This document shows positions 41-11,264 of a stretch of 64,000 nucleotides of DNA, in pieces (positions within the stretch are counted from its first letter, which is position 1; the number at the start of each line of letters is the position of its first letter). The stretch lies in UHGV virus genome UHGV-1497419, one strand, 5' to 3'. This stretch comes from a virus. The notes under the pieces are model-generated. The model was not told where the DNA came from. It was given only the letters and a program-made list of their open reading frames with translations, and made no database searches. The position numbers were made by a program, and so were the translations under genes.

Positions 41-179
41 CTGCACAATTCTAAAATGATTTTTCTTGCCCGACCTGAGCGGGGTCTGCACGTTTTGAAA
101 ATGATTTTTCTATCCGGCGATGAGATTTTTGGGGATATCTGTACAGACCCCTACAGATACCTGCACAAATTGAAAATGA
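41..179. repeat. three direct copies of a ~19-bp element CTGCAC-N5-(T/G)AAAATGA at 41-59, 86-104 and 161-179
   Basis: Read directly from the sequence; non-coding DNA downstream of the last leftward gene; the overlapping 61-aa plus ORF (14-199) is probably spurious. Confidence 0.5.
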
Positions 180-180
180 A

Positions 181-229
181 AAAGGCCGCCTTACCTTAAA
201 TTTTTCAATGGGTTAGGCAGCCTTCTTAG
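181..229 (-). terminator. putative terminator hairpin (AAGGCCGCC / GGCAGCCTT, long loop) followed by a T-run on the minus strand
   Basis: Inverted repeat with an A-run on the plus strand immediately downstream of the 258-1037 gene; the 25-nt loop is atypically long. Confidence 0.3.
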
Positions 230-257: not shown

Positions 258-1037
258 TCAGCTTATGAATTTGAACTTTTTAGAGTACAGCAAGTAACAA
301 ACTTCATCCTGATTTGTTGTGTAGATGTATGCTGCTGGATGATTACCAAAGAACACCCCTTCGTATCGCCCAAATGGGTCCACTGAGAACATCTCACTGT
401 CACACATACCCATTTCACCAACCAGAGGGTAACTAATCTCCACCTTACCTTCTGCAAGCTGATAGAGGGTAACTTGATTAGTCTTACCATCACTGAGAAC
501 AACACCATCATAAAATTGTGGTGCTGAGGTAGCATACTTAGGGGTAACTACACTTGCCATCTCTTTATCATAGACGTAAAGGTACACATCAACATTGTGC
601 ATGACACTATTAATGATGCTTTTTACAGCCTCCGCATCTAAACCACCAATACCTGCACCAATCATAGGTAATCCAATTTTACGGATAGAGTTCATCCAGC
701 AAAACTTGCGGAGTTTTTCCAGTGCCTCTACTAAGTATCGGTATGATGCGCACTTCCCAACATCCAACTGTGTGTATAGGTTAAAAATGTAACCGTACTC
801 CGTTCGAGCATGTGACACTTCACCAATCATCTGGTAGCCGATATCATGAGCACTGTAGCCAAATTTCTTATGGAATTTCCGGTCAGCTTCTTCAGCTTTT
901 GGGAAAATCTTAGCAATTTTTTGAGCGATTCCAGCACCCATGAGGTTACGACAGTTGCAACCATGAGCAATTAACTCAATATCTGTGTTTTTGAAGGCAG
1001 ATAGTAAGTTACCTTTCACAACTTTTACAATACCCAT
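258..1037 (-). CDS. macrodomain protein, TARG1/OARD1-like ADP-ribose hydrolase family, with a ~110-aa C-terminal extension of unknown function
   Basis: N-terminal region VKGNLLSA...TDIELIAHGCNCRNLMGAGIAQKIAKIFP and later IGLPMIGAGIGGLDAEAV match the pattern I recall for OARD1/TARG1-type macrodomains; not confirmed by search. Confidence 0.55.
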   Translation of the reverse strand: MGIVKVVKGNLLSAFKNTDIELIAHGCNCRNLMGAGIAQKIAKIFPKAEEADRKFHKKFGYSAHDIGYQMIGEVSHARTEYGYIFNLYTQLDVGKCASYRYLVEALEKLRKFCWMNSIRKIGLPMIGAGIGGLDAEAVKSIINSVMHNVDVYLYVYDKEMASVVTPKYATSAPQFYDGVVLSDGKTNQVTLYQLAEGKVEISYPLVGEMGMCDSEMFSVDPFGRYEGVFFGNHPAAYIYTTNQDEVCYLLYSKKFKFIS

Positions 1038-1238
1038 TTAACATCTCTCCCAAGATTCTTTATCTTCTGAAGGTTTTACACGTTGCCCTTCGTGGTCTAC
1101 CCAGATACACCCACAGCCTTCACAGATTACTGGCATTGCATAACCAGCTTTAAAGTCATCTTCAGTGATAAGACCTTTTAAGTCGCCTGTATCACGTCCG
1201 AACATTTCGATAGAACAGTCTTTGCAGAAGTCAGCCAT
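1038..1238 (-). CDS. hypothetical small zinc-ribbon protein (CxxC...CxGC)
   Basis: 66-aa ORF with paired cysteine motifs, tightly packed in the operon. Confidence 0.35.
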   Translation of the reverse strand: MADFCKDCSIEMFGRDTGDLKGLITEDDFKAGYAMPVICEGCGCIWVDHEGQRVKPSEDKESWERC

Positions 1239-1478: not shown

Positions 1479-1779
1479 AGTTTACCTTCTCAGTTAGCTC
1501 ATATAAATCAACATGCTCAATACTATCAATGTTGATGTCAATCTTTTTGAAACGTTCTATCACTTCGTTGTCAGTCATCCATATCAGACACCAATGGTTC
1601 TGAATGGATTCTTCAAGAAGTTCAACACAATCTTTAAAAGTTTTTGTATCACTTCTTGTGCCTACTACTGCGATTGTTCCATATAGCCACTTACCATTGC
1701 CATAAGATACTTGTGCTACGCCAACTTCTTTACCTTTCTCGTAGTAAACGGCTACAAAGTCTCTTCCATTAATCTGCAT
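1456..1779 (-). CDS. hypothetical protein
   Basis: 107-aa ORF in the co-directional gene array. Confidence 0.35.
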   Translation of the reverse strand: MQINGRDFVAVYYEKGKEVGVAQVSYGNGKWLYGTIAVVGTRSDTKTFKDCVELLEESIQNHWCLIWMTDNEVIERFKKIDINIDSIEHVDLYELTEKVNYESSRGN

Positions 1780-1781
1780 AG

Positions 1782-2051
1782 TTACTTCCTCGTTTTAAGA
1801 ACTGCTAAGATTTCTTTAGAGTCTGGTAAGAACCATGTGTAGTGATTCTCTTTGATTTCTGGATGAGTGTCAACCTTTATTTTGCACTCTTTACCAACAT
1901 GCTTAAGCTGTGCTGTGACACCTTGCATAAAGATATGGCACATCACATTATCCATAATGGTTGGTATGAAGTCAATTCGCATATAAGTTTCTTTTGGTCG
2001 CGGTAACAGTAAGTACCCTTCTACGTAAAAAGTATCTTCATTCTCTGTCAT
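1782..2051 (-). CDS. hypothetical protein
   Basis: 89-aa ORF; its start overlaps the stop of the next gene by 4 nt. Confidence 0.35.
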   Translation of the reverse strand: MTENEDTFYVEGYLLLPRPKETYMRIDFIPTIMDNVMCHIFMQGVTAQLKHVGKECKIKVDTHPEIKENHYTWFLPDSKEILAVLKTRK

Positions 2052-2317
2052 TGCTGTTTATTTCCTAATAAAATCATATCAATAAGGTTATTAGCTTTGA
2101 TTGTGCACTGGTAAAATCCATCACGATAGAACTCAAGGGCTGCTGCCACATCACTACCAGTATTACCTTTGATAGTGAATCTTGAATCTTCTTGAGTGTA
2201 CTTATCACTCTCACTTACTTGGGAGTTTTTGAATGTACTGTTCACTTTGTTCGTTGAACACCCTGACATAATTATCAGTAACACAAACATTATAAAACTC
2301 TGGCTTAGTTTTTTCAT
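2048..2317 (-). CDS. putative o-spanin (outer-membrane lipoprotein)
   Basis: Signal peptide with lipobox-like IMSGC; the gene starts inside the 3' part of the upstream TM/coiled-coil gene in another frame (overlapped spanin architecture). Confidence 0.4.
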   Translation of the reverse strand: MKKLSQSFIMFVLLIIMSGCSTNKVNSTFKNSQVSESDKYTQEDSRFTIKGNTGSDVAAALEFYRDGFYQCTIKANNLIDMILLGNKQQ

Positions 2318-2558
2318 ATGTTAGTACCTCTTTTGTGTGCTTATTCTTAGCAAGCACATCTTTCAAATCATTTTTGTAATTGGTGCTGAGTGTGGCTAAA
2401 CCTTCCTGATAAGCATCTTTGGCAACACTTATTAGTTTCTCATTATTTAGCTCAGTTTCAGCAACTTGGTAGTCTCTGTAAGAGTATCCTCCCCAGACAC
2501 CTGCCCCAACTAAGAAAACAATTATGAAAGTAGCTTGACAAAACTCTTTAAATGTCAT
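2211..2558 (-). CDS. putative i-spanin (N-terminal TM helix plus periplasmic coiled coil)
   Basis: Hydrophobic N-terminal segment FIIVFLVGAGVWGG then a charged helical region; overlapped by the lipoprotein gene; adjacent to the lytic transglycosylase. Confidence 0.4.
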   Translation of the reverse strand: MTFKEFCQATFIIVFLVGAGVWGGYSYRDYQVAETELNNEKLISVAKDAYQEGLATLSTNYKNDLKDVLAKNKHTKEVLTYEKTKPEFYNVCVTDNYVRVFNEQSEQYIQKLPSK

Positions 2559-3085: not shown

Positions 3086-3781
3086 TCAATGTTTAACTAA
3101 CATGGTTTTAATGTGTGGAAGGATTCTGTTCACCTTCTGCACATTCTTCTCTGTATCTTCTATAAAGCATACTATATTAAAGTAAGGCAGAATGCAAGAC
3201 TGAATCATCCTCACTTTCAAACTTTCTGCACTTATAGAGTTAGCCCCAAAACCACGCATAAAAAGCATGTAGTCATGCTCTGTGTTATGCCTTAAAAACA
3301 TCTCAGTAGGTATTCTCTGAGATTCACCTCTCGCTGTCAAGAGTCCAACAGCAGCATGATTAGCAATTGCATCAATGATATTGAAAACATACGTTGGCTT
3401 TGCTCTTACAGAATCAAGAAGATTGGTATACTGTGAGAATGAACCATCAGTCAATTCCGTTGAGCAATCTTCGTGATTAAAATTTGTAAGAACACCATCA
3501 ATATCTGCTAAGATGAGATTCCCTTTTTCTACAAGGTCTTTATTGACTATGACTAAGCTATCACGACTTACACCTATAGTTTGTCCAGTCTCTTTATCTA
3601 CAACATTCACAATTGGCTCTGATGTGTGAAACTCTTCTAGTGAACATACAACTTCTCTTGCAGTGTCTTCAAAATCCCTACACTGTTCTGGAGTCCATAC
3701 ACAGGAATCAAGACCTAACTCATGAGGATGTAAGTCATAAGCATGACACAGTACTTCATCAGACTTTCTTAATTTTTTCAT
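3086..3781 (-). CDS. HAD-superfamily phosphatase (possible nucleotidase)
   Basis: HAD motif I-like ILADIDGVLT; T5-like phages encode a HAD deoxynucleotidase, so this is a plausible analogue (inference). Confidence 0.4.
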   Translation of the reverse strand: MKKLRKSDEVLCHAYDLHPHELGLDSCVWTPEQCRDFEDTAREVVCSLEEFHTSEPIVNVVDKETGQTIGVSRDSLVIVNKDLVEKGNLILADIDGVLTNFNHEDCSTELTDGSFSQYTNLLDSVRAKPTYVFNIIDAIANHAAVGLLTARGESQRIPTEMFLRHNTEHDYMLFMRGFGANSISAESLKVRMIQSCILPYFNIVCFIEDTEKNVQKVNRILPHIKTMLVKH

Positions 3782-8538: not shown

Positions 8539-10320
8539 TTAAAGCTGCTTGTCAATATTATTTCGAATATCCCCAAGAGTTGTGTAACCGAACTGCTCAG
8601 AGTCACTAAAGACTAAACGTAAGGCACAAGCTGGGTGGTCAAGTACATCTGCAAAACTCTGGAATCCATAGCCATCTATAGCTTTCAGCTTGTCACCATC
8701 CCACATAGGTGCTACACCACCAAAGGCAGATTTCTTAACACCACTATCTGTTTTAGGGTCTTTTGCAAGCATAATCTCTTTACCACCAATGCTTGCAAGA
8801 GTTGCTTTGACAGCAAATGCAAAGGTGTCACGAGTCATGTACTGGTAAGTGTAAGAACCTACGCCAAACACTACGTTAGAGCTTGCAAAACCCATTTCAT
8901 ACAGACGCTTCAGGATTTCGTTTGCACGTTCCAGTGTGATAGAGTCACCATAGATAAGGCCGATGTGCTCATCCAGTACCTTAAACCCTTTAGAGTTAAC
9001 AGTTCCCCCAAAGATGTTGTACAGCGTCTTAATAGCTCCATCAATCTCCGCTACAGGACGTGTTACAACGTTTGCAGAACCAACCATATAAGCATTCTTC
9101 AGCAGTACTGTATCAGCAACTTCAAAGTCTTCTCTGTCAACAACCATTTCGTAGCCTTCTGACAGTAGCCATCCAGCAATACCATAGTTAATGTTTTCAA
9201 GCTTCATGTTCAGGACAGAGTTCAGCATTGTATCACTTGCCTCCAGCTTGCTTAGGTGTTCGTAATAAGCCTTCTTAGCACACTCTAAGTGGATTGCTTT
9301 ATAACCTGTGACAATATGTACAGGGTCTCCAGAGTCAGGGCGAATTACCAGTTTACCATCACGTTCCATAATTTCTTTACGGAGTGCTGGTAAGATTTCT
9401 GACACAGTTCTCCAGAAGTTATAAGTATCTGAAACAATGCTTGCAATACCAGTTGGGTAAGTTTCTGTTAAGAAACGACGGAAGGTTTGCAACTCACCTT
9501 TAAAACGTCTTTCTTCTTCAATCAATTCGTTACCGCCTTCCCAAGCAATGTTTGCACACATTACAGAGTGTTCAGTGGCTGGTACAGAGCTACCAATATC
9601 AGAGATTGGGTAAGACTGTCCATAGATTCGTTTAGCCGTATACACAGCAGGGAAGCTATCAGTTCCTTTAAAGCTGGTTAAGTGACCTACAGCGTTAAAT
9701 GCGTCATCAGTAAAGCCGGACATACCACGCATAGCAAAGTCATGGCACTGATAAGGTAAATGTAAGTCGTTGTCGCAAGTAAGGTCAGCCCACTTCTTAC
9801 AGATACGTTTATAATGCAATGCAATAGTTGCAATGGTACAAGCCTTCCAAATCTCAGCAGAGAAAGCATCCTCCAGATACCCCGCTACCCAATGGAAACC
9901 TGAAACAGTGTTCTGGAAGACAATCATTGGGACACGCATAGGGACAACTGTACCTTCTTCTACAGCGTATACTTCAACTGGTAGATAACCTAAGTCGTGA
10001 AGTGCTTCCCAATGCTCTCGACCGATAGCATCTTTACCCAGAACACCATTCATGACTTCTAAGATTTCATCAATGGCTTCTTTTTTATCACGTTCAAAGA
10101 AAGTGGCGTTCCAGTGGTCTATCAAGTAATCTTTAACGAAACGTTGAATACCAAAAGCCACTACACCATCAATTGCTAAGGGGCTGTTAAACCATTTGTC
10201 ACTACGTGGTGTCAGGTTGAACATCAAATACTCTGTTGCACTAGGATACTGGTAAACATGACCAGATTTGTAAGCATCTGCGTTTAAACCTGCTGGTACT
10301 GCATAAAGTGATTTAGTCAT
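8539..10320 (-). CDS. nicotinamide phosphoribosyltransferase family protein (NadV/NAMPT-like; candidate Namat of an NARP1 pathway)
   Basis: Blocks matching human NAMPT from memory: DAYKSGH..QYP, LPVEVYAVEEGTVVP, HDFAMRGMSG...FKGTDS, PATEHSV, SIVSDTYN, VIRPDSGDP, GLIYGDSI. Confidence 0.85.
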   Translation of the reverse strand: MTKSLYAVPAGLNADAYKSGHVYQYPSATEYLMFNLTPRSDKWFNSPLAIDGVVAFGIQRFVKDYLIDHWNATFFERDKKEAIDEILEVMNGVLGKDAIGREHWEALHDLGYLPVEVYAVEEGTVVPMRVPMIVFQNTVSGFHWVAGYLEDAFSAEIWKACTIATIALHYKRICKKWADLTCDNDLHLPYQCHDFAMRGMSGFTDDAFNAVGHLTSFKGTDSFPAVYTAKRIYGQSYPISDIGSSVPATEHSVMCANIAWEGGNELIEEERRFKGELQTFRRFLTETYPTGIASIVSDTYNFWRTVSEILPALRKEIMERDGKLVIRPDSGDPVHIVTGYKAIHLECAKKAYYEHLSKLEASDTMLNSVLNMKLENINYGIAGWLLSEGYEMVVDREDFEVADTVLLKNAYMVGSANVVTRPVAEIDGAIKTLYNIFGGTVNSKGFKVLDEHIGLIYGDSITLERANEILKRLYEMGFASSNVVFGVGSYTYQYMTRDTFAFAVKATLASIGGKEIMLAKDPKTDSGVKKSAFGGVAPMWDGDKLKAIDGYGFQSFADVLDHPACALRLVFSDSEQFGYTTLGDIRNNIDKQL

Positions 10321-10367: not shown

Positions 10368-11264
10368 TCAATCAAGGTTTGCTACAGTAACTTGACTGTA
10401 ATGTGTTAAGCCACGGTCTTTAGCTTCGCCTAAAGAGTTTGTAGTGTAAATATGGTCGATACCATTGTCAAGAAGGTTTTCAACATCTTTAGAGAAGATA
10501 CCATGTGTTACATAAAGTTCCACACGTTTTGCACCTGCTTCACGAAGATGCTTCGCTGCTTCTATGAAGGTTCGACCACCATCACAGATATCATCCAGAA
10601 TCATGACGGTTTTATCTGTCAAATCAACATCATCAAGGATTCGCATACTAGTAATTTCACCAGTCTTAAGGTTACGCACTTTAGACATTGTGATGTATGG
10701 TTTATCCACCTCTTTAGCAGTCTCTGCAATCTTCTTAGCAGCACCTGCATCTGGGGCTACTAAGTAATCAATCAGTGGGTCATTTGCATAGTGGACTGCA
10801 ATTTCCTTTTGAGGAATACTCTGGAAGCAGTTAAACAGGTTATCTGGTACATAGCTGTGAGGGTCAACTGCACAGACTGCATCAAAACCCATTGCATTAA
10901 CCTGTTGTGCAAACACTTTCAAAGCTGCTGCATCACCTTTAAACATGTGACGGTCGTAACGTGCATTTGGCAAATAGTAAAAGATAGCAGTCTTCATAGC
11001 AAACTTATGAGGTACTAAATCATCAATTGCTTCTTTAGCAAGTGCCACAGCAAACAATGTGTCCTTATCATAACCTTTTACAATCATAATCACATTGTTG
11101 ATAGATGATGCTGCATAAGCAGTAAAATCAACAAACTCTGGCGAAAAGTGTCCACCAATCTCACCAGAAGGGAATTGGACGATGTTAAACTCTTCTTCAT
11201 GAGTCCCTTTAGTTGGTGAATGAACTGTAACACGGATAGATGTTTTCATAGTTTTCTCTCTCAA
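10368..11264 (-). CDS. ribose-phosphate pyrophosphokinase family protein (Prs-like; candidate Adps of an NARP1 pathway)
   Basis: Prs signature blocks LPNARYDR, VDPHS, VAPDAGAAKK and the PRPP-binding loop VMILDDICDGGRTF...AKRVELYVTHGIFS. Confidence 0.8.
   Translation of the reverse strand: MREKTMKTSIRVTVHSPTKGTHEEEFNIVQFPSGEIGGHFSPEFVDFTAYAASSINNVIMIVKGYDKDTLFAVALAKEAIDDLVPHKFAMKTAIFYYLPNARYDRHMFKGDAAALKVFAQQVNAMGFDAVCAVDPHSYVPDNLFNCFQSIPQKEIAVHYANDPLIDYLVAPDAGAAKKIAETAKEVDKPYITMSKVRNLKTGEITSMRILDDVDLTDKTVMILDDICDGGRTFIEAAKHLREAGAKRVELYVTHGIFSKDVENLLDNGIDHIYTTNSLGEAKDRGLTHYSQVTVANLD

Follow-up and report, generated by a model that had tools for sequence, protein, structure and literature searches.

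What does a phage macrodomain do when the catalytic residues of its closest solved structures have been replaced, and when it is fused to a second domain that diverges even faster than the first? This question is raised by a gene at positions 258-1037 (minus strand) of the virus genome UHGV-1497419, of which a stretch of 64,000 nucleotides was analysed here (the window). The source phage is a Felix-O1-like myovirus (Ounavirinae, Felixounavirus). The first 3 kb of the window share 95.5% DNA identity with Escherichia phage VpaE1_ev035 and are matched by 258 phage records, nearly all of which are Felixounaviruses of Escherichia, Salmonella, Shigella and Citrobacter. An earlier note on this DNA had described the product as an OARD1/TARG1-type macrodomain with a C-terminal extension. 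The explanation we favour, with moderate confidence, is that the gene encodes an AdfM-like ADP-ribosyl hydrolase directed against ADP-ribosylation by the host, most probably the modification made by DarT2, and carrying a variable accessory domain.

The macrodomain fold

Residues 1-157 (567-1037, minus strand) are a macrodomain that is TARG1/DarG-like in fold, and their motifs (HGCNC ... NLYTQ ... IGAGIGG) place them in a Gln-type subfamily which includes T4 Tk.4/AdfM. The Pfam Macro family (PF01661) was matched over residues 25-141 with 30.8 bits, against a cut-off of 22. When the single sequence was compared with solved structures by phmmer, human OARD1/TARG1 was the best match (E 1.2e-8), and further matches were obtained with Thermus DarG (5.9e-7), yeast Poa1p (N-terminal part only) and Mycobacterium tuberculosis (Mtb) DarG. 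With a profile of 25 relatives, the TARG1 match rose to 1.4e-16 and the DarG matches to approximately 1e-12.

The AlphaFold2 (AF2) model built on the alignment of these relatives showed the three-layer alpha/beta/alpha macro fold, with a predicted local distance difference test score (pLDDT) of 91.3 and a predicted template modelling score (pTM) of 0.87. It contains the conserved glycine-rich ADP-ribose-binding loops GAGIA (residues 34-38) and IGAGIGG (126-132). Compared with the PDB by Foldseek, the model gave target template modelling scores (TM-scores) of 0.76-0.85 overall, with TARG1 first (0.83-0.85), followed by Taq DarG (0.81-0.85), Mtb DarG (0.83) and Poa1p (about 0.77). The hidden Markov model (HMM) search and the structure comparison that the earlier note had suggested have thus borne out the macro fold, with TARG1 and DarG as the closest solved structures. 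The models of complete DarG were matched in part: the PADLOC DarG model matched the macro half only (E 2e-16), and the NCBIfam DarG model NF048014 (E 2.7e-15) aligned at profile positions 2-154 of 338 only, with 56.5 bits against an equivalog cut-off of 250.

A glutamine in place of the catalytic lysine

The OARD1/TARG1 label, which the fold justifies, does not extend to the active site. In TARG1, K84 is the catalytic lysine that forms a covalent intermediate, and D125 is the catalytic aspartate. The phmmer, profile and MAFFT alignments agree that Gln90 of the window protein (codon CAG, 768-770, minus strand) stands opposite TARG1 K84 and DarG K80, the position of the FPTK lysine in Taq DarG, Mtb DarG and PhiKZ gp104, where the window protein reads LYTQ. 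Gly131 is aligned with TARG1 D125. The glutamine lies in the NLYTQ motif in all 25 relatives, and likewise in T4 Tk.4.

The other invariant positions across the 25 relatives, whose sequences diverge widely elsewhere, are His25 (963-965, minus strand), Gly26, Asn28 (954-956, minus strand), Asp52 and the glycine loops. Asn28 is equivalent to N23 of PhiKZ AdfM (PMC13309987). His25 aligns with TARG1 H32, and Poa1p, whose sequence was checked against the structure 6lfq, has H23 and N26 of its H-x-C-N-C motif opposite His25 and Asn28. Poa1p is an active ADP-ribose-1''-phosphate phosphatase without the lysine.

Relatives in bacteria carry the same substitution. They were collected by a pattern scan of one genome per species, in which the motif at the Lys/Gln position was not part of the pattern. 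The 52 loci that were found, from Verrucomicrobia, Planctomycetes, Hyphomicrobiaceae, cyanobacteria and others, all contain HGCN, and the lysine position is occupied by glutamine in every locus that covers it (48/48), as Thr-Gln in 44. As the glutamine at this position is invariant, the lysine-based chemistry of TARG1 and DarG would be impossible. Judged from its sequence, the window protein therefore does not share the mechanism of TARG1- or DarG-type enzymes, and it belongs to a distinct Gln-type subfamily that must have different chemistry.

Relationship to the phage Tk.4/AdfM family

The protein matched PHROG 335 ('phosphatase') over residues 1-258 with an E value of 4e-84. The same family was matched by the macro part of the window protein (E 1.2e-64), by T4 Tk.4 (1.3e-65) and by PhiKZ gp104 (8e-43). 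In BLASTP, the window protein was 33% identical to T4 Tk.4 over residues 3-157 (E 2e-23), and the motifs HGCNC, NLYTQ and IGAGIG are identical in the two proteins. Relatives were detected by tblastn in 2,747 phage records, and those of T-even-like phages adjoin the vs gene; the T4 copy is tk.4.

Two relatives within PHROG 335 provide a precedent for the suggestion that a phage copy could counter DarT modification, which is therefore plausible. In a screen of a T4 transposon library on a DarTG2 host, tk.4 was the only significant hit, and its clean deletion made T4 sensitive to DarTG2; the gene was given the name adfM, anti-DarT factor Macrodomain (10.1101/2025.11.20.689424, preprint). PhiKZ gp104, which was independently named AdfM, is able in vitro to strip an oligonucleotide of the ADP-ribose that DarT2 has attached, an activity impaired in the N23A variant (PMC13309987).

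The family is a known one that has already been annotated, and only the extra domain is new. A protein identical to that of the window is public (e.g. EIY1698388.1, 'macro domain-containing protein', 29 contigs), and phage records name it 'phosphatase', 'Macro domain, Poa1p_like family' or 'high-affinity ADP-ribose binding module'. Absent from these public annotations are the link to T4 AdfM, the invariant Lys-to-Gln substitution, the confinement of the orphan C-terminal domain to Ounavirinae-like phages and the cassette behaviour of the gene. The gene is passed over in one comparative-genomics paper on Felixounavirus.

The orphan C-terminal domain

Residues 158-259 (261-566, minus strand) comprise a linker and an orphan C-terminal domain. 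Its fold was predicted with confidence by AF2, both in the full-length protein and alone (pLDDT 85-91; alone 85), and consists of six beta-strands and a C-terminal helix. According to these models it is a separate, compact, beta-rich domain of unknown fold family. The pTM of the full-length model (0.87) suggests that it is held in a fixed orientation. Within the domain, P173 and G178 alone are invariant; both belong to a PxxFDG-like motif.

The absence of a recognisable motif in this extension, as stated in the earlier note, was confirmed in that no Pfam, PDB or BFVD relative was found. Searching Pfam with 15 members of the domain returned nothing below E 0.016, each weak match being present in one member only, and a profile search of the PDB returned nothing below E 0.5. 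Foldseek against the viral structure library BFVD found only the domain's own family (a protein of the Felix-like phage SUSP2). When 1.84 billion representative proteins were searched exhaustively with a profile, the domain was detected only in macro fusions, together with repeat/beta-propeller artefacts, and these fusions are confined to Ounavirinae-like phages. A divergent version of 252 amino acids is present on a metagenomic phage contig, in which the synteny of rIIB ... polynucleotide kinase (PNK)-like gene ... small gene ... macro gene is kept. A function as nucleic-acid binder or DNA mimic was considered from the charge of the domain and rejected, as its isoelectric point differs between alleles (4.6 to 9.4) and there is no conservation of net charge.

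Variation between related phages

The window allele is carried by 13 phage records at 90-99% protein identity. All other matches are below 60%, including the remaining approximately 244 records with a match covering at least 80% of the protein; one common allele is roughly 42% identical. Relative to phage EC6, the DNA upstream of the start codon is 95-100% identical, and identity then falls from 97% to 44-75% (mean approximately 57%) over the gene and the downstream spacer; in a global alignment the drop lies in the 60-nt bin that contains the ATG. Between alleles, identity is about 60% in the first 48 residues, 38-51% in the rest of the macrodomain and 12-31% in the C-terminal domain. A recombination break at around codon 48, as drawn from a blastn high-scoring segment pair, was rejected because the global alignment puts the jump at the start codon and the 48 N-terminal residues are themselves so divergent. 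On these comparisons the whole gene appears to be an exchanged or fast-evolving accessory cassette, a pattern that is typical of counter-defence genes but not proof of such a function.

A further difference between these genomes was observed upstream of the gene. EC6 has approximately 280 extra bases (L003:3296-3577) between two small genes compared with the window and VpaE1_ev035; the blastn pieces overlap at window positions 1775-1791, and the surrounding region is 92-97% identical. The difference amounts to a small indel of an ORF.

Genomic context

The open reading frame (ORF) that had been pointed out at 258-1037 is a real gene. It is a complete coding sequence of 259 amino acids on the minus strand, comprising the macrodomain and the C-terminal domain, with an ATG start, a stop codon at 258-260 and a Shine-Dalgarno sequence, GGGAGAG (1045-1051, minus strand), 7 nt 5' of the ATG. 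Its start codon is abutted by the stop codon (1038-1040) of an upstream 66-aa gene. The product of this ORF (1038-1238, minus strand) is Cys-rich (CxxC ... CxxCxC) and belongs to PHROG 2210 (unknown function). On the divergent metagenomic phage contig, an ORF of 63 amino acids likewise abuts the macro gene (L007 5810-6001). The arrangement may reflect translational coupling, or the small protein may be a functional partner.

The genes of VpaE1_ev035 are arranged as rIIA, rIIB, several small genes, the PNK-like gene, spanins, small genes and the macro gene, which is therefore located on the rIIA/rIIB strand and downstream of these two genes. A gap of about 0.5 kb follows, after which further genes on the same strand are found. 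The gene had been thought to end a leftward early operon. It does close a transcription unit, but as same-strand genes resume after the gap in VpaE1_ev035, it ends that one unit and not the whole leftward block.

Just 3' of the stop codon is an intrinsic-terminator-like structure (168-227, minus strand), made up of a hairpin (179-227) and a U-rich tail (168-178). The hairpin has a folding energy of -26.6 kcal/mol and a z-score of -3.6, and none of 200 shuffled sequences folded as well. It was missed by a consensus terminator scan, probably owing to its long branched loop. The iterated repeat array that had been described after the gene consists of direct repeats, but of three copies only (CTGCAC-N2-TT-N2-AAAATGA..., starting at 41, 86 and 161; 41-199, plus strand), the third of which overlaps the terminator. 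A motif search of the window returned these three copies and two matches elsewhere with 2 mismatches, giving 5 in total against 0.32 expected. In the comparison with EC6, the first two repeat units are in a stretch of 91% identity and the third is in a stretch of 75%. The possibility that the repeat is a genome-wide promoter or operator motif was rejected, since the good matches are the three local copies only, and no sigma-70-like site was found in the repeat spacer. In VpaE1_ev035 the spacer continues (L001:6800-7160), with G-rich GGGGAGAGGGG/GGGGAGTAAGAG units flanking the palindrome CTGTCTCTAGAGACAG.

Several neighbouring genes were also noted. The gene block of the macrodomain also encodes a 231-aa protein (3086-3781, minus strand) that has no Pfam match but falls into PHROG 3970, 'polynucleotide kinase', with E 2e-134, and whose syntenic counterpart on the metagenomic contig has a weak match to HAD_PNKP; the 231-aa protein is possibly a phosphatase-only relative of PNK. 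Within the rIIA/rIIB-side block there are overlapping spanin-like genes (2048-2558, minus strand; Rz-like, PHROGs 1152 and 456), which, going by the annotation of the related phage EC6, lie well away from the endolysin. Among the neighbours of the macro gene (small genes, spanins and the PNK-like gene) none is annotated as DarT or is of DarT size, although the window was not searched with a DarT sequence. By tblastn of the 64-kb window, no match better than E 0.1 was obtained for a partner anti-DarTG1 NADAR protein (T4 AdfN) or for an Alt-like ADP-ribosyltransferase, the latter with T4 Alt as the single query. Approximately 7.5 kb upstream and on the same strand are a nicotinamide-phosphoribosyltransferase (Nampt)-like gene (NAPRTase/NAMPT_N; 8539-10320, minus strand) and a phosphoribosyl pyrophosphate (PRPP)-synthetase-like gene (10368-11264, minus strand). 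The phage therefore carries functions for the salvage of nicotinamide adenine dinucleotide (NAD+) beside a putative ADP-ribose-processing enzyme.

Discussion

DarT2 places thymidine-linked ADP-ribose on single-stranded DNA, which blocks replication. We propose that the macrodomain of the window protein would strip the ADP-ribose that is put on phage nucleic acid by host defence transferases, the best-documented case being DarT2 acting on single-stranded DNA. The enzymatic activity and the substrate are inferred from the family members in T4 and PhiKZ. Catalysis would take place via the conserved His25, Asn28, Asp52 and Gln90 together with the two glycine-rich loops, and would be nearer to that of the lysine-less Poa1p than to that of TARG1. 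The C-terminal domain may serve as a targeting or partner-binding module, as suggested by its divergence, which is much faster than that of the enzyme domain. Such rapid C-terminal divergence and the exchange of the cassette among close phages are as expected for a counter-defence gene.

Several points weigh against this explanation. For T4 tk.4 the evidence is purely genetic and has been reported in a preprint (10.1101/2025.11.20.689424). The identity between the window protein and T4 Tk.4 is only 33%, and the AdfM that was characterised biochemically, from PhiKZ, keeps the lysine, which is essential in TARG1 and DarG and is Gln90 here, while TARG1 D125 is Gly131. We know of no biochemical demonstration that a Gln-type macrodomain hydrolyses the thymidine-ADP-ribose bond. 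The C-terminal domain has no similarity to the DarT-binding domain of DarG, as the DarG HMMs align to the macro part only. In our literature search, no paper joined DarTG with Felixounavirus, Ounavirinae or Felix O1.

The surroundings of the bacterial relatives count on the same side. Within 4 kb of the 52 loci no DarT2 homologue was detected by tblastn, a search of limited sensitivity with a single P. aeruginosa DarT2 query, and clustering of the neighbouring genes yielded only lineage-specific synteny and spurious high-GC ORFs. In Hyphomicrobiaceae/Rhizobiales a standalone Gln-type gene (HGCN ... NAYTQ) adjoins ORFs resembling isoleucyl-tRNA synthetase and signal peptidase II, two identities that were read by eye from the translations (loci L023, L025, L027, L029, L030, L037, L039 and L043). 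The Hyphomicrobiaceae copies are located between these two ORFs, the second of which encodes a membrane protein. The lack of a nearby DarT2 and these housekeeping-looking contexts weaken the idea of a captured DarG and keep a general ADP-ribose-derivative hydrolase in play. On this evidence, an origin of the Gln-type subfamily from DarG is not obvious, and its substrate may be a more general one.

That idea leads to the main alternative, which we regard as rather unlikely, namely that the protein hydrolyses small ADP-ribose derivatives and does not repair DNA. Candidate substrates are ADP-ribose-1''-phosphate, O-acetyl-ADP-ribose and the ADP-ribose-derived signals or toxins of TIR, Sir2 or RES defence enzymes, and the ADP-ribose released might feed the phage's own NAD+ salvage, for which the upstream Nampt-like and PRPP-synthetase-like genes could be relevant. 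The HxCNC start of the active site is that of Poa1p (H23/N26), both proteins being without the lysine, and the bacterial Gln-type relatives are standalone, without DarT nearby and in some cases in housekeeping neighbourhoods. A comparative genomics survey has also argued that most phage macrodomains target low-molecular-weight ADP-ribose derivatives (PMC9503650). However, protection from the DNA-modifying DarTG2 is the sole phenotype of a close family member, T4 Tk.4, and the literature search revealed no phage macrodomain that acts on Thoeris signals. The two activities, on small molecules and on ADP-ribosylated DNA, are not mutually exclusive.

A distinctly unlikely target is ADP-ribosylated protein or RNA, in which case the enzyme would reverse the action of host ADP-ribosyltransferase toxins on the translation or transcription machinery or on mRNA, or would limit a phage-encoded transferase. 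TARG1, to which the window protein is closest among solved structures in both sequence and fold, is a hydrolase of ADP-ribosyl groups on both proteins and nucleic acids, and the variable C-terminal domain could dock on a protein substrate. The catalytic dyad of TARG1 is missing from the window protein, however; tblastn with T4 Alt as the single query found no phage ADP-ribosyltransferase in the window. The same missing residues (K84 to Gln, D125 to Gly) could instead mean that the protein is a catalytically dead ADP-ribose reader or sponge, which would sequester ADP-ribosylated DNA or protein or an ADP-ribose-derived signal, with the C-terminal domain as an effector or oligomerisation module. 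The earlier note had reasoned in this direction, expecting a binding-only module if the lysine and aspartate were lost. Both are lost, but the conclusion does not follow, because T4 Tk.4 protects from DarTG2 with the same glutamine, Poa1p is an enzyme without the lysine, and the asparagine whose mutation lowers hydrolysis by PhiKZ AdfM is invariant as Asn28. The strict invariance of His25, Asn28, Asp52 and Gln90 in the 25 relatives also points to a conserved active site and not merely to a pocket for binding, and we consider a dead reader or sponge very improbable.

Returning to an AdfM-like hydrolase as the preferred explanation, it is conceivable, but unlikely in our view, that the C-terminal domain provides a second, stoichiometric arm, either by binding and inhibiting a host ADP-ribosyltransferase toxin or by docking the enzyme on the toxin or on the replisome. 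If so, the protein would be a convergent analogue of DarG, likewise an enzyme joined to a toxin-binding domain but built with an unrelated fold, and the divergent alleles among Felixounaviruses that are otherwise 93-97% identical could each be matched to different toxin variants. In the same vein, the invariant Lys-to-Gln substitution would set these proteins apart by mechanism, as a class of their own among the macrodomains that remove ADP-ribose from DNA.

Phages of the Felix-O1 group are widely used for typing and biocontrol of Salmonella and E. coli. A defined role has been assigned to phage macrodomains only recently, with AdfM acting against DarTG2 in T4 and PhiKZ. In the Felix-O1 group the T4-type version, which lacks the lysine, is present in fusion with a further domain whose fold is unknown. 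As the gene is among the sharpest hypervariable cassettes in near-identical genomes, it offers a convenient natural allele series, which could be used to ask what makes phage de-ADP-ribosylation specific and by what means a substrate can be cleaved without the lysine of TARG1 and DarG. The allele that is carried by a therapeutic Felixounavirus may influence which defence-carrying hosts can be infected. If the protein is only a generic hydrolase of ADP-ribose derivatives, the finding would be an ordinary one.

Comparison with known systems

T4 Tk.4 is, like the window protein, the product of a non-structural phage gene of PHROG 335 in which glutamine replaces the lysine of DarG and TARG1. It differs in being a standalone macrodomain of 155 amino acids, whereas the window protein has an extra C-terminal domain of 100 residues. 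PhiKZ gp104 shares the macro fold and the conserved asparagine (N23; N28 in the window protein), and both are phage-encoded, orphan, 'antitoxin-like' proteins. In contrast to the window protein, gp104 keeps the DarG-type FPTK lysine, has no C-terminal domain and is imported into the phage nucleus.

DarG resembles the window protein in the sequence and fold of its macrodomain and in its layout, a macrodomain followed by a C-terminal domain, and the GGLD loop of the window protein is closer to that of DarG than to that of TARG1. However, the FPTK lysine of DarG is replaced by glutamine, and the window protein scores far below the NCBIfam equivalog cut-off. Human TARG1/OARD1, the best solved match by sequence and fold, has the active-site histidine (His32) and the glycine-rich loops in common with it, but differs in that both K84 and D125 are replaced (Gln90 and Gly131) and in that TARG1 has a serine at the position of the family's invariant Asn28. 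With yeast Poa1p the window protein shares the H-x-C-N-C motif, the G-x-G-I-A loop that follows and the lack of the lysine, at a target TM-score of about 0.77. Poa1p is set apart by a lower overall similarity, a long insertion, its eukaryotic tRNA-splicing context and Ser30, which is mutated in the deposited structures and corresponds to Leu32 in the window protein.

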